Of a stretch of 64,000 bases of DNA, positions 1-41,945 are shown piece by piece. The notes beneath the pieces were generated by a model. It searched no databases and was not told where the DNA came from. It saw nothing but the letters and a program-made list of their open reading frames with translations. Source of the DNA: Pontibacter ruber. Lineage in GTDB: Bacteria; Bacteroidota; Bacteroidia; Cytophagales; Hymenobacteraceae. The stretch covers positions 300,899-364,898 of the forward strand of contig NZ_JALPRR010000002.1 in assembly GCF_023630205.1 (NCBI RefSeq). Direction: 5' to 3'. Both the position numbers and the translations under genes were made by a program. Within the stretch, counting starts at the first letter, position 1, and each line of letters starts with the position of its first letter.

Positions 1-179
1 GGGTGCTGCGTTCTGTAGCCAATCTTACCCGCCGGGACGGAGAGGAGTTCCTGCAACTGGCACCCCAGATCCCGGTTAAAACAGAGACACAGCTGTTCCT
101 CCTGCGCCAGGCCAACGAGGCGCTGGCCGCCCTGAAGCAGGGCCGGATACAGGGGGCAGCTGTGCTGGTGATGTCGTAA
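1..179 (+). CDS. 3' end of a zinc-binding alcohol dehydrogenase family gene (5'-partial)
   Basis: Frame 3 translates to ...LAPQIPVKTETQLFLLRQANEALAALKQGRIQGAAVLVMS*. This matches the conserved C-terminus of MDR/zinc-ADH enzymes. Stop TAA at 177-179. Confidence 0.6.
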   Translation, partial: VLRSVANLTRRDGEEFLQLAPQIPVKTETQLFLLRQANEALAALKQGRIQGAAVLVMS

Positions 180-24570: not shown

Positions 24571-26016
24571 ATGTCTCAAAAACCAACCCGCTTAAAATCT
24601 TTACGTTACCCGCTCCTGGTGTTGGGCCTGGGGGTGGCGCTGGCTTCCTGCAGTCAGAAAACTACTGCCCCGGTAGCTGAAACAACGCCCGCAACCGAAA
24701 CAGCGGAACCCGCCACGCCGGCAACCCCGACCTACAAGGTGCCGGTAGATTATTATACTTTAGACAACGGTCTGAAAGTAGTGCTGTCGCCGGACAAAAC
24801 CTCGCCGATCGCTACCGTGGCCGTGTATTACAACATCGGTTTCCGGATCGAGCCGAAAGACCGTACCGGCTTTGCGCACCTGTTCGAGCACATGATGTTC
24901 CAGGGCTCGGAGAACCTGGGCAAGATGGAGTTCATCCAGCTGGTGCAGAAAAACGGCGGCATCCTGAACGGCAGTACCCGTTTTGATTTTACCAATTATT
25001 TCGAGATCGTACCGGCGCATAAACTCGAGACCATGCTTTGGGCCGAGGCCGACCGCATGAAGGGCCTCAACATCACACAGGAGAACCTGACCAATCAACA
25101 GGGTGTGGTCAAAAACGAGGTAAAAGTGAACGTGCTCAACCAGCCGTACGGCGGTTTCCCGTGGCTCGACATGCCGCAGTATGCCAACAAGAACTGGTAC
25201 AATGCCCACAACTTTTACGGCGACCTGAAAGACCTTGATGCCGCCACGTTGGAGGATGTGAAGTCCTTCTTCAAGACCTATTATGCTCCCAATAACGCTG
25301 CCCTTGTCGTAGTCGGCGATTTTGAACCGGAGCAGGCAAAAACCTGGATCAAGCAGTACTTCGGCAACCTTCCTTCAGCTACATTACCTCCTAAAGCAGA
25401 CCTGACGGAGCCGCGCCAGGAGAAGGAACAGCGCTTTACTAAAGATGATAAACTGGCCAACAAACCGGCGCTTGCTTTTGCATACCACATGCCCGAGCGC
25501 AACTCACCTGAATATTATGCCATGGGCCTGCTCGACCAGATCCTGCTGCAGGGCAACGACAGCCGCTTGTACCAGGCGCTGGTGCAGGACCGGGGCTACA
25601 CCGGCTCGGTAGAGGGTGGCATCAACTACCTGGGCAACATGTTCAATTACAACGGTCCAATGCTCTGGATGGGCAACCTCGTGTACGACAAGAATGTGGC
25701 AACCGACTCCATCGTTTCTGTATTGGATGAAGAGATACAAAAGCTGCAGCAGAATGGCATTACGCAGGAAGTGCTGGACCTGGCAATTGTAAAAATGCGC
25801 TCGTCGCTCTACGATCAGTTAAGCCAGATGTATGGTTTCAGCAAAGCCGACCTGCTGGCCACCTTTGCGCTGTTCGATGATAATCCCGGCCGCATCAACG
25901 AACTCGAATCGGAGTTCAGGAAAGTGACACCGGAAGTGATGCAGCGCACCATCCAGGAGTACCTGCGGCCTACCAACCGCACCGTTTTAGTTGTTAACCC
26001 TCAGGCAAAGATTTAA
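24571..26016 (+). CDS. M16-family zinc metallopeptidase (insulinase/pitrilysin-like), secreted
   Basis: 481 aa with a lipoprotein-like signal. HLFEHMMFQGSE contains the inverted zinc motif HxxEH. Confidence 0.85.
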   Translation: MSQKPTRLKSLRYPLLVLGLGVALASCSQKTTAPVAETTPATETAEPATPATPTYKVPVDYYTLDNGLKVVLSPDKTSPIATVAVYYNIGFRIEPKDRTGFAHLFEHMMFQGSENLGKMEFIQLVQKNGGILNGSTRFDFTNYFEIVPAHKLETMLWAEADRMKGLNITQENLTNQQGVVKNEVKVNVLNQPYGGFPWLDMPQYANKNWYNAHNFYGDLKDLDAATLEDVKSFFKTYYAPNNAALVVVGDFEPEQAKTWIKQYFGNLPSATLPPKADLTEPRQEKEQRFTKDDKLANKPALAFAYHMPERNSPEYYAMGLLDQILLQGNDSRLYQALVQDRGYTGSVEGGINYLGNMFNYNGPMLWMGNLVYDKNVATDSIVSVLDEEIQKLQQNGITQEVLDLAIVKMRSSLYDQLSQMYGFSKADLLATFALFDDNPGRINELESEFRKVTPEVMQRTIQEYLRPTNRTVLVVNPQAKI

Positions 26017-26019
26017 AGT

Positions 26020-27429
26020 ATGGCTACGAACAAAATACTCTCCTTGGCGCTAAGCGCTGTGCTGGCCTTCAGCACGACCATTGCCAGCGCGCAGAAACAA
26101 ACACCTCCGGCAGGTGGGGCACCTAAAGACTTCACGCTGCCGGAAAAACAGGAATTCGAGCTGCCTAATGGCCTTTCAGCTACCATGGTTCCGTTTGGCG
26201 AAATTCCGAAGGTAACCGTGCAGATGGTGGTGCAGGCAGGAAATGTGCACGAAACGGAAAAAGAGAATGGCCTGGCTGATATCGTGGGCCACCTGATGGA
26301 GGAAGGGACTACTACCCGCTCTGCAAAACAAATTGCCGAGGAAGTGGCACGTATGGGCGGTAATCTGAACATCAGCATAGGCCCGAATCAGACAATTATT
26401 TACGGATCAGCGCTAACAGAATATGGCCCGGATCTGGTAAGGCTGATGGCAGATGTGCTGCAGAATCCTTCGTTTCCGGAGTCGGAGCTGGAGCGTATAA
26501 AAAATGATTTTAAACGGCAGATGAACCTGGCCCGTTCGCAGCCAGGCACGCAGGCGCAGACAAAATTCCAAAGCCTGTTGTACCCCAACCATCCTTATGG
26601 CCGCAACCTTCCTACGGATGCCGAGATCAACAGCTTTAGCCTGGAGCAGGTGCGCAACTTTTACCAACAGCAGTTCGGGGCCGACCGCACAGCAGTATAC
26701 GTGGCCGGAAGGTACGAAGCAGGTGCCATGGAAGATGCCCTTAAATCTTCGCTCAGCAACTGGGTGAAAGGACCGGAACCTAACATCCCGATTGCCAAGC
26801 CGGTTACGAAGAGCACTATGGCTGTCATCGATCGGCCAGGCGCACCTCAGTCAACCATCGTGATCGGTTTGCCGGTTGTGGACCCATCGCACCAGGATTA
26901 TATCCCTTTAAGAGTGACCAACTCGCTGTTGGGCGGCTCGTTCGGTTCGCGCATCACCCGCAACATACGTGAGAACAAAGGTTATACTTACTCACCGTCC
27001 AGCTCCCTGTCGGCACGTTACCGCGTTGGCGATTGGTATGAATTTGCAGACGTTACAACCGAGCATACCGGCAATTCGCTCAAAGAGATCGTAAATGAGA
27101 TAAACCGACTGGGCAAGGAGCCACCGGCAGCCGATGAACTGGAAGGTATCAAGAACTATGAGGCAGGCCTGTTCGTGCTGCGCAATTCCACGCCGGACGG
27201 CATCATCAGCCAGCTCAACTTCCTGGACCTGCACGGGTTGCCTGAAACATTCCTGACAAACCAGGTGCAGAACATTCTTGCGGTTACGCCACAGCAGGTG
27301 CAGTCTTTAACCCAGAAGTATATCCGTCCGAAAGATATGACGCTGGTGGTAGTAGGAGATAAAAAGCAGATCGATAAACAGCTGAAGAAGTTTCAGGCAG
27401 ACCTGAAAAAGACAACGGTGCCGCAATAA
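26020..27429 (+). CDS. M16-family peptidase partner subunit (non-catalytic or divergent)
   Basis: 469 aa with a signal peptide. M16 fold (VGHLMEEGTTTRS) but lacks the canonical HxxEH. Starts 4 nt after the preceding M16 gene. Confidence 0.75.
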   Translation: MATNKILSLALSAVLAFSTTIASAQKQTPPAGGAPKDFTLPEKQEFELPNGLSATMVPFGEIPKVTVQMVVQAGNVHETEKENGLADIVGHLMEEGTTTRSAKQIAEEVARMGGNLNISIGPNQTIIYGSALTEYGPDLVRLMADVLQNPSFPESELERIKNDFKRQMNLARSQPGTQAQTKFQSLLYPNHPYGRNLPTDAEINSFSLEQVRNFYQQQFGADRTAVYVAGRYEAGAMEDALKSSLSNWVKGPEPNIPIAKPVTKSTMAVIDRPGAPQSTIVIGLPVVDPSHQDYIPLRVTNSLLGGSFGSRITRNIRENKGYTYSPSSSLSARYRVGDWYEFADVTTEHTGNSLKEIVNEINRLGKEPPAADELEGIKNYEAGLFVLRNSTPDGIISQLNFLDLHGLPETFLTNQVQNILAVTPQQVQSLTQKYIRPKDMTLVVVGDKKQIDKQLKKFQADLKKTTVPQ

Positions 27430-27545: not shown

Positions 27546-28025
27546 CTAACGCTCATTCCCTGCATCTTCAAAAACGACCATTTCCTTCCACAGCCGGTCA
27601 AACTCCACCAGGTAGGCCGTAACAAGGTCGCGCTGGTTGGTAACGAGCAGGTTTTCGTGGTTATAATTGGCGGCGCTGCGGGTCCAGTTGTAGCTGCCGG
27701 TCAGCAGGGCCTCGTTGTCGATGAGGGCGAACTTGTGGTGCATGTGGTTTTGTGTCACGTCTACCCGCGTCTCGATGCCTGCTGCTGCCAGCTCCCGGAT
27801 ATCCGATCCTTTGTCGAAGAGCTTTTCGTTATCGGTCAGGAGCTTTACCTCAATTCCGGATGCATGTGCCTGTTTTATAGCAGCCGTGATGCGGTCGTCG
27901 CTGATGGTAAACACGCAGATCTTGAGCGAGTACTCGGCAGTTGTGATGCTGTCGAGTATGGCGTTGAGGCAGTCGTTGCCCGGGCTGAAGCAGGCACGGT
28001 TGATTTGTTTGTTTAGTTCTTTCAA
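27546..28025 (-). CDS. phospholipase-D-family (HKD) nuclease, Nuc-like
   Basis: 159 aa. HHKFALIDNEALLTGSYNWTRSA contains the HxK(x4)D...N HKD motif of single-domain PLD nucleases. The called start is a TTG with no upstream in-frame ATG. Confidence 0.65.
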   Translation of the reverse strand: MKELNKQINRACFSPGNDCLNAILDSITTAEYSLKICVFTISDDRITAAIKQAHASGIEVKLLTDNEKLFDKGSDIRELAAAGIETRVDVTQNHMHHKFALIDNEALLTGSYNWTRSAANYNHENLLVTNQRDLVTAYLVEFDRLWKEMVVFEDAGNER

Positions 28026-33068: not shown

Positions 33069-33080
33069 CCTCACCCCAAA

Positions 33081-33112
33081 CCCCTCTCCTAAGAACAGGA
33101 GAGGGGTTTTTT
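33081..33112 (+). terminator. intrinsic terminator after the flotillin gene
   Basis: cccctctcct aagaac aggagagggg followed by TTTTTT. Confidence 0.8.
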
Positions 33113-33272
33113 ATACTTGCGCCAGCCATTAGTACAGAATAAGCTATGGAAACAGTTAAGGTTGGAATAGTGTAGTTGGAAGTGATTTAAAATAATATTT
33201 ACAGTGACTCTAAAGATTTTAGGAATATCGTCACTAGGTAGTTGTAATTGCCAAGATAAAAAAGACTCAGTA

Positions 33273-33815
33273 ATGGATGATATGCTCAAATTTTTTGAAG
33301 ATTTTCAAAACAGAACTATCTACAAAAAACTGACACCGGAGATATTAAAAGATATACCTAATGACCAGTTAGAGCAAACGATTTACGATAACATCTATGA
33401 AATCATTGGATACGACTATGAAAATGAATTCCAAAATGTCCAGAAATTAACAAAAGGACAACAGGCATTTGTATCCACTTGGTTAGTAGAGGTAGAAGTC
33501 AACAATGGAGGGTTCAATCAGTTCTACTTCAATTCCAGCGGACAGTACGCATATATGGCGGTTGATGGATTTGAAACTGTTGGTGCTTTAAAGTTTGCTG
33601 AACTTATGAAAGAAGCAAATAAAATATACGCCTCTATCAAAAGCGATCTCGAAAAATTTGATGATAGCACGCTGGAGAGCTTTAGCGAATCCTACAAAGA
33701 AAACCCTCTAAATAACCTCGATGACCAATTTTATGATCAAGACAAAGCAGAGCCTTTGTGGAAATTTAGAGTGAAGTATATTAGAGAGAATATTGATCAA
33801 TTTATTACGAAGTAA
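33273..33815 (+). CDS. DMP19 / DUF4375-like protein
   Basis: An alternative GTG start at 33204 adds 23 aa. The motif WLVEVEVNNGGFNQFYFNSSGQYAYMAVDGFETVGALKFAEL matches the NNGGF-QF-NS-G signature I associate with the DUF4375/DMP19 family. The gene is about 36% GC, against over 52% for its neighbours. Confidence 0.5.
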   Translation: MDDMLKFFEDFQNRTIYKKLTPEILKDIPNDQLEQTIYDNIYEIIGYDYENEFQNVQKLTKGQQAFVSTWLVEVEVNNGGFNQFYFNSSGQYAYMAVDGFETVGALKFAELMKEANKIYASIKSDLEKFDDSTLESFSESYKENPLNNLDDQFYDQDKAEPLWKFRVKYIRENIDQFITK

Positions 33816-33911
33816 AACTACTGTTGTCAGTTAGGCATAGTTATACCTCGCCAAGTGAGCACATAAGCACACAGACTTTTACCCATCATTAATTCCTAAT
33901 CCTCCACCCAC

Positions 33912-36900
33912 ATGGAAGATACCAATACCGCTACTACCACAGCTGCCGAGAACGTGCAGTTGGAGGGGGGCACTTATGAAATCTTACGGAACCGTCTGCA
34001 GAAGAGCGGGGCAGAACTGCGTACGCAACTGGAGCAGCTAAACCAGGAGCGGAAGAGCGTGTTCGGAGCGATCGAGACGAAGCTGATCACCACCGAGCGC
34101 ATTACCACCGAGAACAACTGCGTGCCTTGGGACATGGTGCCCGTGGGCTATACCTTGCTCTTTGGCTACAACGTATACCTGGGCCTGAAGTCGGAGGTGG
34201 AGCTGTCGGATGTGTTTGGCGTCTATACCTACGAGGGCCACAGCTTCCACCAACAGCCGCTCGATTTGCTGCAGGACAAGACCTTTAAGGACGACTTTCA
34301 GAAGCTCTACAAATACTACAAGAACACCCAGTTCGTCAAGTTTGCGCACATCGGCAACTACCTGTACATGGTGTTCCGGGTGGGCAAGGGCGTCAACGAT
34401 ATAAAGACCTTTAAGTGGTTGCTCAAAGGCGACACGATCACCTACATCGACAACCGCAGCGACCACGAGTATGTGTTCCCCAACCAGCACGATTTCAGCT
34501 GGAAGCGCACCACCCGCGAGGCACAGCGCAAAGGCAAACACCCGCACGTGTCCATCGAGGACAAGGTGTTCGTGGAGACGGTCGGTGGTGACCTCACCAT
34601 CAAGGTAGAGGACAACACCGACTCGGGGCGTGGTATTTACTCGGAAGAGGTGGAGGACAAGGACCAGACGCTCGACGACTCGGAGATTTACTACGCCGTG
34701 GTGGGCAACATCATCGTCCTGAAGATACGTCCCTACCGCGAGAACAACTACCGCTACTTCGTCTACAATGTGAAGCTGCAGGAGGCCCGCCGCATTGACG
34801 CGCTGGAGCACAGTTGTGTGCTGTTGCCGGACGGGCAGGGCATTATCTACGCCTATGGGTATTACCTGCAGACGGGCGAGTTCAAGCAATTTGACAACAA
34901 CCTGCAGGACATGCTGTTTGAGAAGCGCATCACTTCCCCGAACGGCGAGGATTTCCTGTATGTGTTCTACAACAAGGAGTCGGGCATCTACCAGTTGCTG
35001 TCCTATAACCTGATCACGCAGCAAATCGAGACTCCGATTATCTGCCACGGCTACGCCATTTACGAGAACGGCGAGTTGTGCTATTTCCGGGCCGACGAAG
35101 AGGCGCAGAAGCACCATGCCATCCAGATCTGGCAGACGCCTTACATCGGGCCGAACTTTGTGATACCGGTTACGCAGGAGTCCTACCTCTACAAGATCGG
35201 CAACAAGGACATTGTGCGGGCCATGGCCGAGAGCAACGAGGTGCTGTCTCTCTTGCACAAGGACGATTCCTATGCCAACCTATACCTCGACCTGATCAAG
35301 AAAACCACCGATGTACTGGATTCTTACCACTGGCTGAACCGGGCGGAGACCTACAATCTGGCGGGGCCGGTTGCGGCGATCCGGCAGACGGCCACGGCGG
35401 CGGTGGAGGAGTACGAGAAGGTGCTCAGCATTAAGAAAAATACGCAGGCACAGATAGGTCAGGTGCTGGGGCAGGCCGATACGCTGATCCAGACGCTGAA
35501 GCACAAGAAGGCCGAGAGCATCAACGACTATGTGAAGTATCTGGCCGATTTGCGGGGTATACGCGGCGAGGTGATCTCGCTGAAGGAGCTGCGCTATACC
35601 GACCTGCCGACCATTGAAAAATACGAAGCGCAGCTGCAGCAATTTGCGCAGGATACCGCCAACGGAGCCGTAGAATTCCTGTTGCAGCCGAACGCGCTGG
35701 CGCCTTACGAGAAGAAGGTAAAGGAGATCAACACCGCCATTGTAGGTATAGCCAAAGTGGTGGAAGCCGACGCAACCGACAAGGAAATTGCGGCGGTGTC
35801 ATCGGAACTGGAAATGCTGATCGATGTGGTGAGCAACCTCAAGATCGAAGACGCCACCCAGACCACCCGCATCATCGATACGATCTCGGCTATTTACGCC
35901 ACCTTCAACCAGACCAAAGCCACCCTGCGCCGCAAGCGTAAAGAGTTGTTGAGTCAGGAAGGCAAGGCTGAATTCAACTCCCAGATCAAGCTGATCAGCC
36001 AGAGTGTGGTCAACTACCTCGACGTGTCGGACTCGCCGCAGAAGTGCGAAGAGTACCTGGCCAAGCTGATGGTACAGTTGGAGGAACTCGAGGGCCGCTT
36101 CCCAGATTTTGACGAGTTCATTGAGCAGCTCACGGTCAAGCGGGAGGAGATCTACAGCGCTTTTGAATCGAAGAAAGTGCAGCTGCAGGAAGCGCAGAAC
36201 AAGCGTGCCAACAGCCTGCAACAGGCAGCAGACCGCATCCTGAAAGCGGTGCAGAACCGGGCCAGCAAGCTGACTTCGGTGAGCGAGATCAACGGCTACT
36301 TCGCCTCTGATCTGATGATCGAGAAGGTGCGGAGCACGGTGGAGGAGTTGCTCAAGATCGGTGATACGGTAAAAGCCGATACCATCCAGAGTCGCCTCAA
36401 AACCCTGAAGGAAGACGCCGTGCGCCAGCTGAAGGACAAGCAGGAGCTGTTTGTGGACGGCGCCAACATCCTGAAGTTTGGCAAGCACCAGTTCACGGTC
36501 AACACCCAACCGCTGGAGCTGAGCGTAGTGCACCGCGATGACGCCATGTATTATCACCTCACCGGCACCAGTTTTTTCGAGAAGATCACCGATGACCAGT
36601 TTCTGAGCTACCGCCCCGTATGGGAGCAGACGCTGGTATCGGAGAACCATCAGGTATACCGTGCCGAGTATCTGGCTTTTAAAGTGCTGGAAGCAGCGCA
36701 GGATAAAGGTATAGCCACGCAGCAAAACGAGAACAGCCTGCGCTACCTGAGCATCGACGAACTGCACAAGCTCACCGAGGCCGAGCTGACCGACTACATG
36801 AACAAGTTCATGGCCGCGCGCTTCAACGAGGGCTACATGAAAGGCGTGCATGACCACGACGCGGCTCTGATCTTAGGTGCACTGATCCGCTTGATTAAAA

Positions 36901-38879
36901 CGGCCGACTTGCTTCGCTATACCTCCACAGACAGGGCTTGCGCGCAGCTGTACTGGAAGGTGTTCGCACCAGAGTTGAAAAAGAAAGTGCTCCAACATCA
37001 ACTTCAAGGTATAAGCGCCATCCTGCAGGTCTTCCCCGACACGCACGAGTTTGACGACGTAAAAGCAGATCTGCAGCAGGAGCTCTATATTTTCCAGCAA
37101 GAGACCGGGCTGTGCAAAGAAGCCGGTACAGCCGAGGCAGGCGCGTACCTGTTCTACGAATTAACAAGAGGCAACACCTTTGTGATCGACAGCCAGGCTG
37201 ATGTTTTGTACAACGGCTTTAAAAACTTTCTGACAGAGCGGCGTGTGCTGGAGCGTTTTAAGGAATCAGTAAAAGCGCTGCAGGGGAATATGGCGCACCA
37301 ATTCGAGCTGATACAGCACTGGCTGAAGGCCTACATCGCGCAGGCCGGGCAGCACGACAAAACCGAATTTGTGGCCGAGGTGGCGGTACTGTTGCTTACC
37401 GATAGCTATAACACGCAGCAGGTAGTGCACACGGTGCTGAAGGAGAGTCTACAAGGTATGCAGGGCGCACACCAGCAGGTGCAGGGCCAGCAATACCAGC
37501 TGCACTACCACGGCTTCATGCGCCGCCTCCGCAACTATACTTCCAGCACGGCTACGGCCTTTACAGCTTTCACGGAGCTTAAAAAGAACCTGACGCAGCA
37601 GGCCGAGCAACAGCTTCGCCTGAACGAATTCAAGCCGCGGGTGCTGTCTTCGTTTGTGCGCAACAAACTGATCGACCAGGTATACCTGCCGCTGATTGGC
37701 GCCAATCTGGCCAAGCAGATCGGCACGGCAGGGGAGGCCAAACGCACCGACCTGATGGGCATGCTTTTGCTGATCTCACCTCCGGGCTATGGCAAGACCA
37801 CCATCATGGAGTACATCGCCAACCGCCTGGGCATTATTTTCATGAAGATCAACGGTCCCGCTATCGGGCACCAGGTCACGGCGCTGGACCCGAAAGAGGC
37901 ACCTAATGCCGCTGCTCGTGAGGAGCTGGAGAAGCTGAACCTGTCCTTTGAGATGGGCGATAACGTGATGATCTACCTTGACGACATCCAGCACTGTAAT
38001 CCCGAGTTTTTGCAGAAGTTCATCTCCCTTTGCGACGCGCAGCGTAAGATCGAAGGCGTGTACAAAGGCCGCAGCAAGACTTATGATTTCCGTGGCAAAA
38101 AGGTATGTGTAGTAATGGCCGGTAACCCCTATACCGAAACAGGCGAGAAGTTCCGCATTCCGGACATGCTCGCCAACCGCGCCGACATCTACAACCTCGG
38201 CGACATCATCGACGACACCGAAGACGTGTTCAAACTGAGCTACATTGAAAACTCCCTCACCTTCAACACTGTGCTGGCCAAGCTGGCGGCGAAGAGTCAG
38301 AAAGACATTTATGCACTCATCCATCTGGCCGAAACAGGCAACAGCGAAGGGCTGGAGTTTGAGGGCAACCACTCGGCAGCCGAACTCAACGAGTATGTGC
38401 TGGTGCTGAAGAAATTGCTTAAGATCCAGGACGTGATCCTGAAAGTGAACCTGGAGTATATCCGCTCGGCGGCGCAGGCTGACGAGTACCGCACCGAGCC
38501 GGCCTTTAAGCTGCAGGGCTCTTACCGCAACATGAACAAGCTGGCTGAGAAGGTCATGCCAATTATGAACGACCAGGAACTGCAAACGCTCATCCTGTCA
38601 CACTACGAGGCCGAGTCGCAGACGCTCACTTCCGGTGCCGAAGCCAACATGCTCAAATTCAAGCAGCTCATCGGCATCATGACCGAGGCTGAGGCACAGC
38701 GCTGGGAAGACATCAAAGCCACCTTCGTGCGCAACAACAAGCTCAAAGGCTTCGGCGGCAACAACCAGGTAGGGCAGGTACTCACTCAAATGGAAAACAT
38801 ATCCAGCGGACTTGAAGGTATAAAACAGGTGCTAAGCCAATTCAAGCCAAGCAGGCTGGAAGCGGCGGAGGAGATTTAA
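33912..38879 (+). CDS. giant (1655 aa) protein with C-terminal AAA_5 (MoxR/McrB/dynein-type) ATPase domain; function unknown
   Basis: Uninterrupted 4968-nt ORF with a real ATG and a terminator downstream. AAA module motifs: Walker A LISPPGYGKTT (about aa 1285), Walker B VMIYLDDIQH, sensor and arginine region VCVVMAGNPYTETGEKFRIPDMLANRAD. The preceding ~1250 aa are mostly helical or coiled-coil, with a beta-rich segment around aa 250-400. Confidence 0.8.
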   Translation: MEDTNTATTTAAENVQLEGGTYEILRNRLQKSGAELRTQLEQLNQERKSVFGAIETKLITTERITTENNCVPWDMVPVGYTLLFGYNVYLGLKSEVELSDVFGVYTYEGHSFHQQPLDLLQDKTFKDDFQKLYKYYKNTQFVKFAHIGNYLYMVFRVGKGVNDIKTFKWLLKGDTITYIDNRSDHEYVFPNQHDFSWKRTTREAQRKGKHPHVSIEDKVFVETVGGDLTIKVEDNTDSGRGIYSEEVEDKDQTLDDSEIYYAVVGNIIVLKIRPYRENNYRYFVYNVKLQEARRIDALEHSCVLLPDGQGIIYAYGYYLQTGEFKQFDNNLQDMLFEKRITSPNGEDFLYVFYNKESGIYQLLSYNLITQQIETPIICHGYAIYENGELCYFRADEEAQKHHAIQIWQTPYIGPNFVIPVTQESYLYKIGNKDIVRAMAESNEVLSLLHKDDSYANLYLDLIKKTTDVLDSYHWLNRAETYNLAGPVAAIRQTATAAVEEYEKVLSIKKNTQAQIGQVLGQADTLIQTLKHKKAESINDYVKYLADLRGIRGEVISLKELRYTDLPTIEKYEAQLQQFAQDTANGAVEFLLQPNALAPYEKKVKEINTAIVGIAKVVEADATDKEIAAVSSELEMLIDVVSNLKIEDATQTTRIIDTISAIYATFNQTKATLRRKRKELLSQEGKAEFNSQIKLISQSVVNYLDVSDSPQKCEEYLAKLMVQLEELEGRFPDFDEFIEQLTVKREEIYSAFESKKVQLQEAQNKRANSLQQAADRILKAVQNRASKLTSVSEINGYFASDLMIEKVRSTVEELLKIGDTVKADTIQSRLKTLKEDAVRQLKDKQELFVDGANILKFGKHQFTVNTQPLELSVVHRDDAMYYHLTGTSFFEKITDDQFLSYRPVWEQTLVSENHQVYRAEYLAFKVLEAAQDKGIATQQNENSLRYLSIDELHKLTEAELTDYMNKFMAARFNEGYMKGVHDHDAALILGALIRLIKTADLLRYTSTDRACAQLYWKVFAPELKKKVLQHQLQGISAILQVFPDTHEFDDVKADLQQELYIFQQETGLCKEAGTAEAGAYLFYELTRGNTFVIDSQADVLYNGFKNFLTERRVLERFKESVKALQGNMAHQFELIQHWLKAYIAQAGQHDKTEFVAEVAVLLLTDSYNTQQVVHTVLKESLQGMQGAHQQVQGQQYQLHYHGFMRRLRNYTSSTATAFTAFTELKKNLTQQAEQQLRLNEFKPRVLSSFVRNKLIDQVYLPLIGANLAKQIGTAGEAKRTDLMGMLLLISPPGYGKTTIMEYIANRLGIIFMKINGPAIGHQVTALDPKEAPNAAAREELEKLNLSFEMGDNVMIYLDDIQHCNPEFLQKFISLCDAQRKIEGVYKGRSKTYDFRGKKVCVVMAGNPYTETGEKFRIPDMLANRADIYNLGDIIDDTEDVFKLSYIENSLTFNTVLAKLAAKSQKDIYALIHLAETGNSEGLEFEGNHSAAELNEYVLVLKKLLKIQDVILKVNLEYIRSAAQADEYRTEPAFKLQGSYRNMNKLAEKVMPIMNDQELQTLILSHYEAESQTLTSGAEANMLKFKQLIGIMTEAEAQRWEDIKATFVRNNKLKGFGGNNQVGQVLTQMENISSGLEGIKQVLSQFKPSRLEAAEEI

Positions 38880-38964
38880 AGTATAGCTGAAAGTATAAAA
38901 AGCCCCTGCAAGTATAAACCAGCAGGGGCTTTTTATACTTTCGTGATTTTCAGCTTTATACTTA
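38879..38964. repeat. cluster of five copies of the abundant 9-mer AAGTATAAA/TTTATACTT around the terminator of the giant gene
   Basis: aagtatagc, aagtataaa (38891), aagtataaa (38910, in the hairpin loop), tttatactt (38932), tttatactt (38955). Confidence 0.8.
38901..38936 (+). terminator. intrinsic terminator after the giant ATPase gene
   Basis: agcccctgc [aagtataaacca] gcaggggct followed by TTTTT. The loop itself is the abundant 9-mer. Confidence 0.75.
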
Positions 38965-39749: not shown

Positions 39750-40247
39750 TTAAAATCCCGTTTCGTCGGCGCTTGGGCCGTAGCTGCCGGGTATTGGAAT
39801 ATCGAGGAGGCGGAGGTACACGCCCAGTTGGGCACGGTGGTGGATGATCTGCGACAGCGCCATCCGGATCACTTCGGCTTTGGTATAGGTGTTATAGATC
39901 TGGTCGCCATTCCGTAATACCCATGGTTGTTCCAGCTGATCTTCTGTGGCTCGGGCTAATCCGGATTTGCCATCGGCATACGTCCTCTCAAAATAAGCTA
40001 CCAGTTCTTTGGTGTTGGCAATTTTCTCTGGCTGGTAAGGGTTTTGCGCAAAGTCCAGCTCGTCGGTGGTGAGCGCCATACTTACCCAGGAAGGCAGCTC
40101 CGCCACGTGCGTTACCAGGCGGATCATGGTCATACTTTTCTGGTGAGGTTGCCAGTCATACTTGTCGTCAGGTACACGCTCCAGCATTTTACGGGTAGTC
40201 TGGGCTTCCTGCTCCAGCTCTTTTGAGAACATTTCGATTACCGTCAT
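39750..40247 (-). CDS. DinB/YfiT-like (DinB_2) metal-dependent hydrolase-fold protein
   Basis: 165 aa. MTVIEMFSKELEQEAQTTRKMLERVPDDKYDWQPH ... IIHHRAQLGVYLRL shows the His triad spacing typical of DinB_2. Confidence 0.72.
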   Translation of the reverse strand: MTVIEMFSKELEQEAQTTRKMLERVPDDKYDWQPHQKSMTMIRLVTHVAELPSWVSMALTTDELDFAQNPYQPEKIANTKELVAYFERTYADGKSGLARATEDQLEQPWVLRNGDQIYNTYTKAEVIRMALSQIIHHRAQLGVYLRLLDIPIPGSYGPSADETGF

Positions 40248-41157: not shown

Positions 41158-41847
41158 CTAATACTCCACCGGCAGTAGCTTCATATACTCGCTCAACTCG
41201 ACGTGATCAGTCTTTGTAAAGGGCTTGTCTGTACTCCTGATCTTCAGGATACGCGACACCCGGAAGTCGCGGTACTCTTTCCGCAGGTGGCACCAGGCGA
41301 TCAGGTGCCAGTTTAAGGCATAGAAAACAAGGCCGATCGGCTCTACCAGCCGTGCGCTCACTTCCTCTTTGTTGTTCTTGTAAGCAAGCTCCAGCATCAC
41401 TTTCGTAGAAATGGCATTCTGGAGCGTTGCCAGGTAATCGGAGTTCAGTTGAAAGCAAGCGGGAATTTGTAACCGGATGTTGCTTGTGAGCGCCTCCAGC
41501 TTTTCCTTCTGCGAAGTTTTTAAAACGTTCTTTACTTTGGTCAGGGCGTTGGAGTAATGCGTCTGTATGGACTTGTCCGCAAATCCATAAACCATGGCTT
41601 CCATCAGGAGCAGTGCATTTGCCTCTTCCGAGCTAAAGGAAACGGGCGGCAGGAAATACCCCTGCACAATAAAGTAGCCTTTGTGCTGCTCAAAACTCAC
41701 CGGAATGCCCTGCTCTCCCAGCGCTTTCACATCGCGGTACACGGTGCGCACGCTTATCCCGAACTTCTCAGCGATCTGCTCTGCCGTTACATACTTCTTC
41801 GACTGCAGCAAGGCCATAATACCAAACAAGCGGTCAATTCTGTTCAT
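41158..41847 (-). CDS. YafY-family transcriptional regulator (HTH + WYL domain)
   Basis: The probable start is the ATG giving MNRIDRLFGIMALLQSKKYVTAEQIAEKFGISVRTVYRDV, a DeoR-type HTH. C-terminal WHLIAWCHLRKEYRDFRVSRI is a WYL domain. Confidence 0.78.
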   Translation of the reverse strand: MNRIDRLFGIMALLQSKKYVTAEQIAEKFGISVRTVYRDVKALGEQGIPVSFEQHKGYFIVQGYFLPPVSFSSEEANALLLMEAMVYGFADKSIQTHYSNALTKVKNVLKTSQKEKLEALTSNIRLQIPACFQLNSDYLATLQNAISTKVMLELAYKNNKEEVSARLVEPIGLVFYALNWHLIAWCHLRKEYRDFRVSRILKIRSTDKPFTKTDHVELSEYMKLLPVEY

Positions 41848-41945
41848 ACTTTCATCTTTCAGGTAAGAAGGCGGCCATAGCTTTAATACGGGCGCCGACG
41901 GAATCACGAGAGGTAATCGAAAAGATTCCGTCCGAAAGCCGGCTT

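Follow-up and report, generated by a model that had tools for sequence, protein, structure and literature searches.

A comparative genomic study has described bacterial operons of the CesT/Tir-PspA-YqiJ/YuaF-band-7/flotillin type that also encode a "beta-propeller + coiled-coil + AAA-ATPase" protein, and it has been proposed that these systems are involved in a chaperone-like assembly of membrane-linked complexes (PMC11237479; mSystems 2024, bioRxiv 2020). In the same study, abbreviated operons without PspA were found to be more common than the complete form, and a PLD gene was detected in some operons. Here we analyze a locus of this type in a 64-kb stretch of the Pontibacter ruber genome (contig NZ_JALPRR010000002.1, positions 300,899 to 364,898; hereinafter the window), in which genes for a YqiJ/NfeD-like membrane protein and a YqiK-type flotillin are followed by a gene for a giant ATPase of 1655 amino acids (aa) that contains the Pfam domains DUF3686 and DUF7902 (Table 1). 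We put at about one in two the probability that this ATPase is the flotillin-tethered, MoxR-like motor of a three-gene membrane module, which consists of the YqiJ/NfeD-like protein, the YqiK-type flotillin and the DUF3686 AAA+ protein, and that it remodels the flotillin scaffold. Membrane-scaffold remodeling, rather than a function on DNA, appears most likely because the gene is almost always located beside the flotillin pair.

A Catalogued ATPase Family

The open reading frame (ORF) at 33912..38879, which a first-pass annotation made from the sequence alone had assigned to a giant protein, is a genuine gene, and its product is identical to the RefSeq protein WP_250429190.1, "DNA repair ATPase [Pontibacter ruber]". 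In Pfam, DUF3686 matches aa 35–473 (E = 2.2e-192, 640 bits with a cut-off of 25) and DUF7902 matches aa 594–678 (nt 35691–35945; E = 6.6e-28, 97.2 bits with a cut-off of 26). Both are above the gathering scores and precede one AAA+ domain, the arrangement by which the family is recognized. The same annotation held that only the C-terminal ~180 aa were recognizable and that more than 1200 aa of the protein were novel; these statements have to be abandoned given the two Pfam entries and the 1008 clusters at 50% identity that are matched by the non-AAA part alone (aa 1–1200; exhaustive search, E ≤ 1e-10).

A word-indexed search retrieves more than 5800 homologs of the ATPase. Among the 120 homologs listed, the query coverage is 98–100% at 60–94% identity, i.e., the proteins are collinear over their full length, and the end-to-end alignment with proteins of 1600–1900 aa persists down to approximately 27% identity. 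In 80 species-representative genomes from GTDB, the family is found in Bacteroidota, Planctomycetota, Desulfobacterota, Verrucomicrobiota and Calditrichia, with 53–96% identity over the full length; remoter members (38–45% identity) come from Gammaproteobacteria, Myxococcota, Actinomycetota and Acidobacteriota. Between Bacteroidota and Planctomycetota the identity is 53–60% (loci L040–L081), which is unusually high for a protein of 1650 aa and implies either very strong constraint or horizontal spread. In some distant family members (P0461, P0462, P0469, P0470, P0502), a PilZ domain (PF07238) is present at the N-terminus, which suggests control of the ATPase by cyclic di-GMP in the lineages concerned; P0502, the only one of the five with a taxon label, belongs to Polyangiaceae.

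We assign the window ATPase as an orthologue within this catalogued family, which has already been discussed computationally. The possibility, raised in the first-pass annotation, that the whole protein belongs to a well-characterized family is thus only half borne out: there is a catalogue entry and a published operon, but the family is not well characterized.

Conserved Synteny with a Flotillin Pair

Synteny was compared in 80 species-representative loci, 67 of which include at least 3.6 kb and 63 at least 6 kb of upstream DNA. In 63 of the 67 loci, the genes for a YqiJ-like protein, a flotillin-like protein and the ATPase follow each other in this order on one strand. The arrangement extends to remote members of the family, namely Pseudomonas, where PspA, a 216-aa protein, a 688-aa protein and the ATPase are encoded in a row, and Amycolatopsis, where the flotillin stop codon overlaps the start codon of the ATPase; the partner proteins in these two genera are recognized by the family hidden Markov models with E-values from 1e-26 to 1e-236. 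Synteny of the ATPase with the flotillin pair is thus near-obligate and spans at least seven phyla.

The identity of the flotillin is settled by an hhalign comparison with Escherichia coli YqiK (probability 100, E 1.4e-39) that covers 396 columns, including the transmembrane helix and the SPFH core. The protein has an N-terminal transmembrane helix, an SPFH core, a Glu/Ala-rich coiled coil and a C-terminal flotillin region. Other searches were less sensitive: neither the window protein nor any of its 31 orthologues has a flotillin match in Pfam or NCBIfam, the match to QmcA is weak, and a direct PDB search yields only flotillin-2 with E 0.32. The YqiJ-like protein, encoded 5 nt upstream of the flotillin gene, aligns with E. 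coli YqiJ in hhalign (probability 96.9, E 1.7e-10), and Pfam YqiJ_N is detected in 25 of its 31 orthologues. These comparisons identify the YqiJ-like protein and the YqiK-type flotillin as predicted conserved partners of the ATPase.

Among the loci with at least 6 kb of upstream DNA, PspA is encoded upstream in 25 of 63 and a CesT-like protein in 22 of 63, in Bacteroidota. One of the loci, L001, has the gene order of the Dokdonia example in the supplement of the comparative study, including a divergent cHTH+protease gene (PMC11237479). The position of the CesT-PspA dyad directly before the trio in these 22–25 loci, and of PspA in Pseudomonas, raises the question whether PspA, the bacterial ESCRT-III homologue, could be the primary substrate, with the ATPase comparable to Vps4 and with flotillin and YqiJ serving only to bring PspA and the motor to the damaged membrane. 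The requirement of B. subtilis PspA for a flotillin-like protein in membrane recruitment is compatible with such an arrangement, as is the apparent absence from bacteria, stated in a 2025 review, of a Vps4-like ATPase acting on PspA. Nevertheless, we consider it distinctly unlikely. In the 64-kb window and in the other Pontibacter loci (L002–L005), tblastn gives no match to PspA or CesT; because the CesT/Tir-PspA dyad, which sister genera possess, is not found there, the window locus is classified as the abbreviated form of the operon.

Domain Architecture

Two AlphaFold2 models, built on a diverse alignment of 44 sequences, cover aa 1–860 (predicted local distance difference test, pLDDT, 85.5) and aa 841–1655 (pLDDT 88.5, predicted template modeling score 0.76). 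The order of elements predicted by these models is a helix, an all-beta domain, a spectrin-like stalk, a helical domain, one AAA+ module and a helical tail. The N-terminal helical segment reported in the first-pass annotation (LRNRLQKSGAELRTQLEQLNQERKS, aa 25–49) coincides with the first of these elements. In other respects, the architecture differs from the one described there. What had been taken for a beta-rich insert at aa 250–400 is an all-beta domain of approximately 350 aa, and the approximately 850 aa of helix-rich sequence said to be devoid of motifs include DUF7902 as well as a small beta domain (aa 853–891) and a beta hairpin (aa 1177–1198). The all-beta domain is labeled a beta-propeller in PMC11237479; the label is not confirmed by our analysis. 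The stalk resembles tandem spectrin repeats in the structure match of the model.

Conservation, expressed as the mean identity to the query over 355 aligned sequences, is highest in the AAA core (82%, with 72 of 179 columns invariant), followed by the all-beta domain (59%) and the stalk (51%), and lowest in the helical domain at aa 917–1163 (34%). In the small beta domain, the conserved residues are G857, F861, V863 and N864. The PDB sequence and profile searches found no solved member of the family, the only matches being to about 35 residues around the P-loop.

The AAA+ Module

The motifs quoted in the first-pass annotation are all present (LISPPGYGKTT at aa 1287–1297, VMIYLDDIQH at aa 1352–1361 and VVMAGNPYTETGEKFRIPDMLANRAD at aa 1400–1425), and they belong to a single AAA+ module (aa ~1252–1550) in the region where that annotation had placed it. 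The Walker residues, whose conservation it had left to be checked, are invariant. In all 355 homologs (38–94% identity), no substitution is seen in Walker A (SPPGYGKTT), in Walker B (DD-IQH), in MAGNPYTE with the sensor-1 residue Asn1405, in the PDML-x-(N/S)-R segment at PDML and at R1423, the Arg finger, in R1527, or in QGSYR, which contributes R1539 at the start of the sensor-2 helix; the same catalytic motifs are retained without exception in 12 further representatives at 27–35% identity. Because the catalytic residues are invariant in both sets, the family is predicted to consist of intact ATPases rather than pseudo-ATPases.

In the model, two strands (aa 1379–1384 and 1387–1392) between alpha3 and the sensor-1 strand form a pre-sensor-1 hairpin, an element that classical AAA proteins lack. 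The sensor-2 helix is preceded by an extra 33-residue helix (aa 1489–1521) and an invariant loop, YRTEPxFKLQGS; by its position, the extra helix may correspond to the pre-sensor-2 helical insert of the clade. No beta hairpin within alpha2, of the kind that would constitute a helix-2 insert, is seen in the DSSP string of the model. Helix alpha2 itself (aa 1333–1348) is preceded by a short turn (aa 1315–1318) and an invariant 14-residue loop (aa 1319–1332) that reads G-H-x-V-T-S-L-D-P..., so that the pore-loop-1 position is occupied by an invariant G-H-x-V, without an aromatic residue.

Structural comparison of the module gives the highest scores with CbbQ (16.2; 242 of 267 residues aligned), NorQ (14.9) and midasin (14.7), followed by four dyneins (13.3–14.1), NVL and ClpA (13.2), ClpB (12.8–12.9), Vps4 (10.8–11.8), McrB (11.2–11.6) and RuvB (10.7). 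The closest folds are CbbQ, NorQ, midasin and dynein, as expected in three dimensions for a member of the AAA_5 clade. The Foldseek E-values do not discriminate between the candidates (RuvB 8.9e-6, the best, and CbbQ 9.3e-6), and the top target-normalized TM-scores (0.49–0.59) belong to CbbQ and NorQ. At the sequence level, the picture is different. Pfam scores the module higher as AAA (PF00004, 30.1 bits, cut-off 21.2) than as RuvB_N (24.1) or AAA_5 (23.9, cut-off 22), and in precomputed Pfam listings PF00004 is given for nearly all homologs and AAA_5 (PF07728) for only part of them. The PDB sequence matches are confined to the P-loop residues of p97, NVL and RuvB. In hhalign comparisons with E. 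coli references, the probabilities are 96% for RuvB (P-loop region), 92% for ClpX and FtsH, 89% for Lon (the sole alignment across the whole AAA core), 71% for McrB and 16.7% for RavA. The AAA_5 call of the first-pass annotation is therefore upheld by the fold, whereas the sequence comparisons, with AAA above AAA_5 in Pfam and RavA at 17%, are ambiguous. We regard the module as a divergent lineage of the AAA_5 (MoxR/dynein-like) group, an assignment backed by the predicted fold and not by sequence.

Three other assignments were considered and rejected. A classical AAA protein of the Cdc48/Vps4/FtsH type (PF00004) is contradicted by the pre-sensor-1 hairpin, by the lack of an aromatic pore loop 1 and by the greater similarity of the fold to CbbQ and NorQ. 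An McrB-type GTPase, the kinship at which the first-pass annotation had hinted, is not indicated either, given that neither the window nor four annotated related loci encode an McrC partner and that McrB is not the closest structure. Membership in the RuvB family was dismissed on comparison with the RuvB model.

RuvB is nonetheless the best hit by two measures, the Foldseek E-value and the P-loop match in hhalign (44 residues), and NCBI and Pfam use the names "DNA repair ATPase" and "ATPase involved in DNA repair". Still, that these proteins are literally DNA-repair or branch-migration ATPases is barely credible: domain content, gene neighborhood and the literature searched offer no support for the name, which is probably a historical mis-annotation and is spreading to thousands of genomes.

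The similarity to CbbQ and NorQ, which are MoxR maturation factors, suggests another alternative. SPFH cages organize AAA+ enzymes such as FtsH, and by analogy with FtsH-HflK/C or NorQ/CbbQ the flotillin could be a mere platform whose microdomain concentrates the ATPase, the latter being a MoxR-like chaperone that acts not on the scaffold but on the maturation or extraction of client membrane proteins or complexes. This alternative, which we judge unlikely, is in line with two loci (L001, L013) in which the operon includes a pair of ABC transporter genes and with the assembly role proposed in PMC11237479. However, the flotillin and YqiJ genes are the only constant neighbors, and a conserved fourth gene that might encode a client or a VWA adaptor was not found. 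Furthermore, the high conservation of the beta domain and the stalk between phyla is easier to reconcile with a partner common to all of them, such as flotillin, than with clients specific to individual lineages.

A Proposed Mechanism of Scaffold Remodeling

Returning to the ATPase as the motor of the three-gene module, we propose that the protein forms a ring through its single AAA+ module, like CbbQ and NorQ, to which the module is structurally most similar, and that each subunit of this ring extends a long spectrin-like arm tipped by the conserved beta domain. The arms would dock onto the flotillin assembly formed by YqiK-type proteins on the cytoplasmic side of the inner membrane, and ATP hydrolysis would remodel this scaffold, i.e., assemble it, open it or take it apart, in envelope stress. 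Where PspA is co-encoded, PspA polymers could be remodeled as well. The mode of action would be a MoxR/midasin-type pulling on the bound partner rather than threading; at pore loop 1, an invariant G-H-x-V is found in place of an aromatic residue.

Several observations weigh against this scheme. The flotillin pair is not found nearby in four of the 67 loci (L031, L051, L071, L079) and in Sorangium. MoxR-type ATPases are normally paired with a VWA partner, and such a partner, which the first-pass annotation had suggested to look for alongside an McrC-like protein, is absent among the neighbors checked: no VWA family is among the Pfam matches of the ATPase or of its neighbors in the window and in L001, L083, L084 and L085. 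In Walker B, the place usually taken by Asp-Glu is occupied by Asp-Asp (aa 1357–1358, nt 37980–37985), with Ile-Gln-His next in the sequence, so that hydrolysis may be slow or switch-like. In the window itself, co-transcription of the flotillin and ATPase genes is uncertain because the two are separated by a strong hairpin that resembles a terminator and by a foreign gene. Finally, we infer, rather than observe, the contact between ATPase and flotillin, the formation of a ring and the nature of the substrate, and no experimental work on any ATPase of the DUF3686 family was found in the literature searched.

In bacteria, both flotillins and PspA assemble into large scaffolds at the membrane. 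A bolder and more doubtful extension, which we put forward tentatively, is that the DUF3686 ATPases are the missing ATP-driven motor for remodeling or disassembly of flotillin (SPFH) assemblies and, where these are co-encoded, of PspA/ESCRT-III polymers. They would then represent an independently built counterpart of Vps4, a MoxR/dynein-type ring with spectrin-like arms and a previously unclassified, scaffold-gripping beta domain. The family is a concrete candidate for a Vps4-like role, being large, extremely conserved and linked to flotillin in many phyla, with its catalytic residues intact. For the window itself, the result is an ordinary one; the family remains an attractive target. Beyond what is available from Pfam, RefSeq and PMC11237479, the present analysis contributes a structure-based placement of the AAA+ module, the recognition of a spectrin-like stalk and a doubt about the "propeller".

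Local Features of the Pontibacter Locus

Table 1. Features of the window around the DUF3686 ATPase gene and of the encoded protein.
Feature	Residues (aa)	Position (nt)	Strand	Basis or remark
M16 peptidase pair		24571-27429	+	
PLD/HKD-family (NucT-like) gene		27546..28025	-	NCBIfam NucT, E 2e-14
YqiJ/NfeD-like membrane protein, first of trio	208-210 aa	30295..30927	+	Pfam YqiJ_N in orthologues, hhalign, synteny
YqiK-type flotillin	711 aa	30933..33068	+	hhalign, synteny
Terminator-like hairpin, 13-bp stem and T run		33078..33109	+	directly 3' of flotillin stop codon
DMP19-like gene	203 aa	33204..33815	+	Pfam PF14300, E 2e-25
DUF3686-DUF7902-AAA+ ATPase gene	1655 aa	33912..38879	+	ORF call and translation, Pfam, exact RefSeq match
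Disordered N-terminus	1-19			AlphaFold model
Single long N-terminal helix	21-51	33972..34064	+	AlphaFold model
All-beta domain, ~28 strands, core of DUF3686	57-410	34080..35141	+	
Spectrin-repeat-like helical stalk, helices up to 58 residues, includes DUF7902	425-846	35184..36449	+	
Small beta domain, five strands	853-891	36468..36584	+	model
All-helical domain	917-1163	36660..37400	+	model
Beta hairpin and 37-residue helix leading into the ATPase	1177-1198 and 1199-1235	37440..37616	+	model
AAA+ alpha/beta core	1252-1430	37665..38201	+	
Walker A SPPGYGKTT	1289-1297	37776-37802	+	
Walker B hhhhDD-IQH	1352-1361	37965-37994	+	
Pre-sensor-1 beta hairpin	1379-1392	38046-38087	+	model
Sensor-1 Asn	N1405			
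Arg finger	R1423			
Sensor-2 helix Arg	R1539			
Lid domain	1434-1550	38211..38561	+	model
C-terminal helical extension	1554-1655	38571..38876	+	model
Hairpin GCCCCTGC(12 nt)GCAGGGGC then TTTTT		38902..38934	+	read from sequence; 23 nt past ATPase stop, convergent genes
DinB-family protein		39750-40247	-	
WYL-HTH regulator		41158-41907	-	downstream of ATPase

The terminator-like hairpin behind the flotillin gene would split the transcription of flotillin and ATPase in P. ruber. Both this hairpin and the one behind the ATPase gene are GC-rich and are followed by a nearly identical tail (TTTTTATACTT). A sigma-70 promoter scan gave background-level signals, the sigma-70 model being unsuited to Bacteroidota.

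The DMP19-like gene that shares the slot between flotillin and ATPase (33069-33911) with the hairpin has a GC content of 0.345, and of 0.36 at third codon positions (GC3), compared with 0.54–0.55 and 0.70–0.77, respectively, for the flotillin and ATPase genes. Among the loci compared, the insert is present only in the window and in Pontibacter coccineus (L004). The gene is evidently foreign cargo outside the conserved system, and its composition suggests that it was recently inserted by horizontal transfer. The flotillin-ATPase gap measures at most 300 nt in 34 of the 70 loci. The gap ORFs examined in the remaining loci encode, besides the DMP19-like proteins, a DUF559 endonuclease-like protein in Hymenobacter, a DUF3800 protein (L003), DUF3592 transmembrane proteins (L008) and DUF5687 together with an ABC ATPase, i.e., the ABC pair of L001 and L013. 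The slot is an insertion hotspot in Cytophagales, with cargo that depends on the genus.

The PLD/HKD-family gene has its best matches in NucT nuclease, DpdK and DrmC. Of 63 loci, 10 have a homolog in the neighborhood of the operon, most often upstream in divergent orientation; in L055 and L062, both from Planctomycetota, it immediately precedes yqiJ in the same orientation. The gene is an optional accessory. Its upstream position in those 10 loci, together with the endonuclease-like, DUF3800 and DMP19-like cargo of the Cytophagales hotspot and the WYL-HTH regulator downstream in the window, could be taken to indicate a role in phage defense or abortive infection, with flotillin and YqiJ as a membrane sensor that activates the large NTPase and with the PLD-family nuclease as the effector. 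We consider this highly unlikely. The ATPase is extremely conserved (53–60% identity across phyla, 82% in the AAA core), unlike fast-evolving defense genes, the PLD gene is present in only a minority of the loci, and different genera carry different cargo in the hotspot. A search of PADLOC-DB yielded no significant match for the ATPase, the flotillin and the other neighbors scanned, the YqiJ-like protein being outside the scan; the best match of the ATPase, to mad8 (E 1.9e-4, 19 bits), is in the P-loop region. The DinB, WYL-HTH and M16 genes are not conserved with the ATPase elsewhere and look unrelated to it.

The long stop-free ORFs on the strand opposite to the ATPase gene are real (34038..35258, 406 aa; 35799..36857, 352 aa; and another of 269 aa), and their interpretation in the first-pass annotation as a by-product of codon usage agrees with our analysis. 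All are in the codon-aligned antisense frame, and they arise because the GC3 of the gene is 0.77 and only 11 of its 1655 codons are TTA, CTA or TCA. These codons give this antisense frame exactly 11 stops, compared with 47–85 in the remaining off-frames.

Comparison with Known Systems

The resemblance to Vps4/ESCRT-III and to FtsH/HflK-HflC is a functional analogy only, namely that of an AAA+ motor coupled, genetically or physically, to a polymeric membrane scaffold, which is ESCRT-III or PspA in one case and an SPFH cage in the other. With the MoxR-class proteins CbbQ and NorQ, and with midasin and dynein, the window ATPase shares the fold of the AAA+ module. However, a VWA/MIDAS partner or domain, which is typical of MoxR, CbbQ, NorQ and midasin, is not seen for this ATPase. 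It further differs from MoxR in that no helix-2 hairpin is seen, in the Asp-Asp of Walker B and in the poor match to the RavA profile. In addition, it is far larger (~1650 aa, compared with ~260–500 aa for MoxR proteins) and is partnered with flotillin and YqiJ.

The two genes upstream are homologous to the SPFH-NfeD pair YqiJ-YqiK of E. coli, with the order retained and tight spacing. In E. coli, no ATPase gene follows yqiK, and YqiK is shorter (553 aa) than the window flotillin. The closest described system is the operon of PMC11237479, with the same protein family and the same gene order. Compared with it, the window locus is the abbreviated form, without CesT-PspA and with an additional DMP19-like gene and terminator-like hairpin; nothing essential differs.

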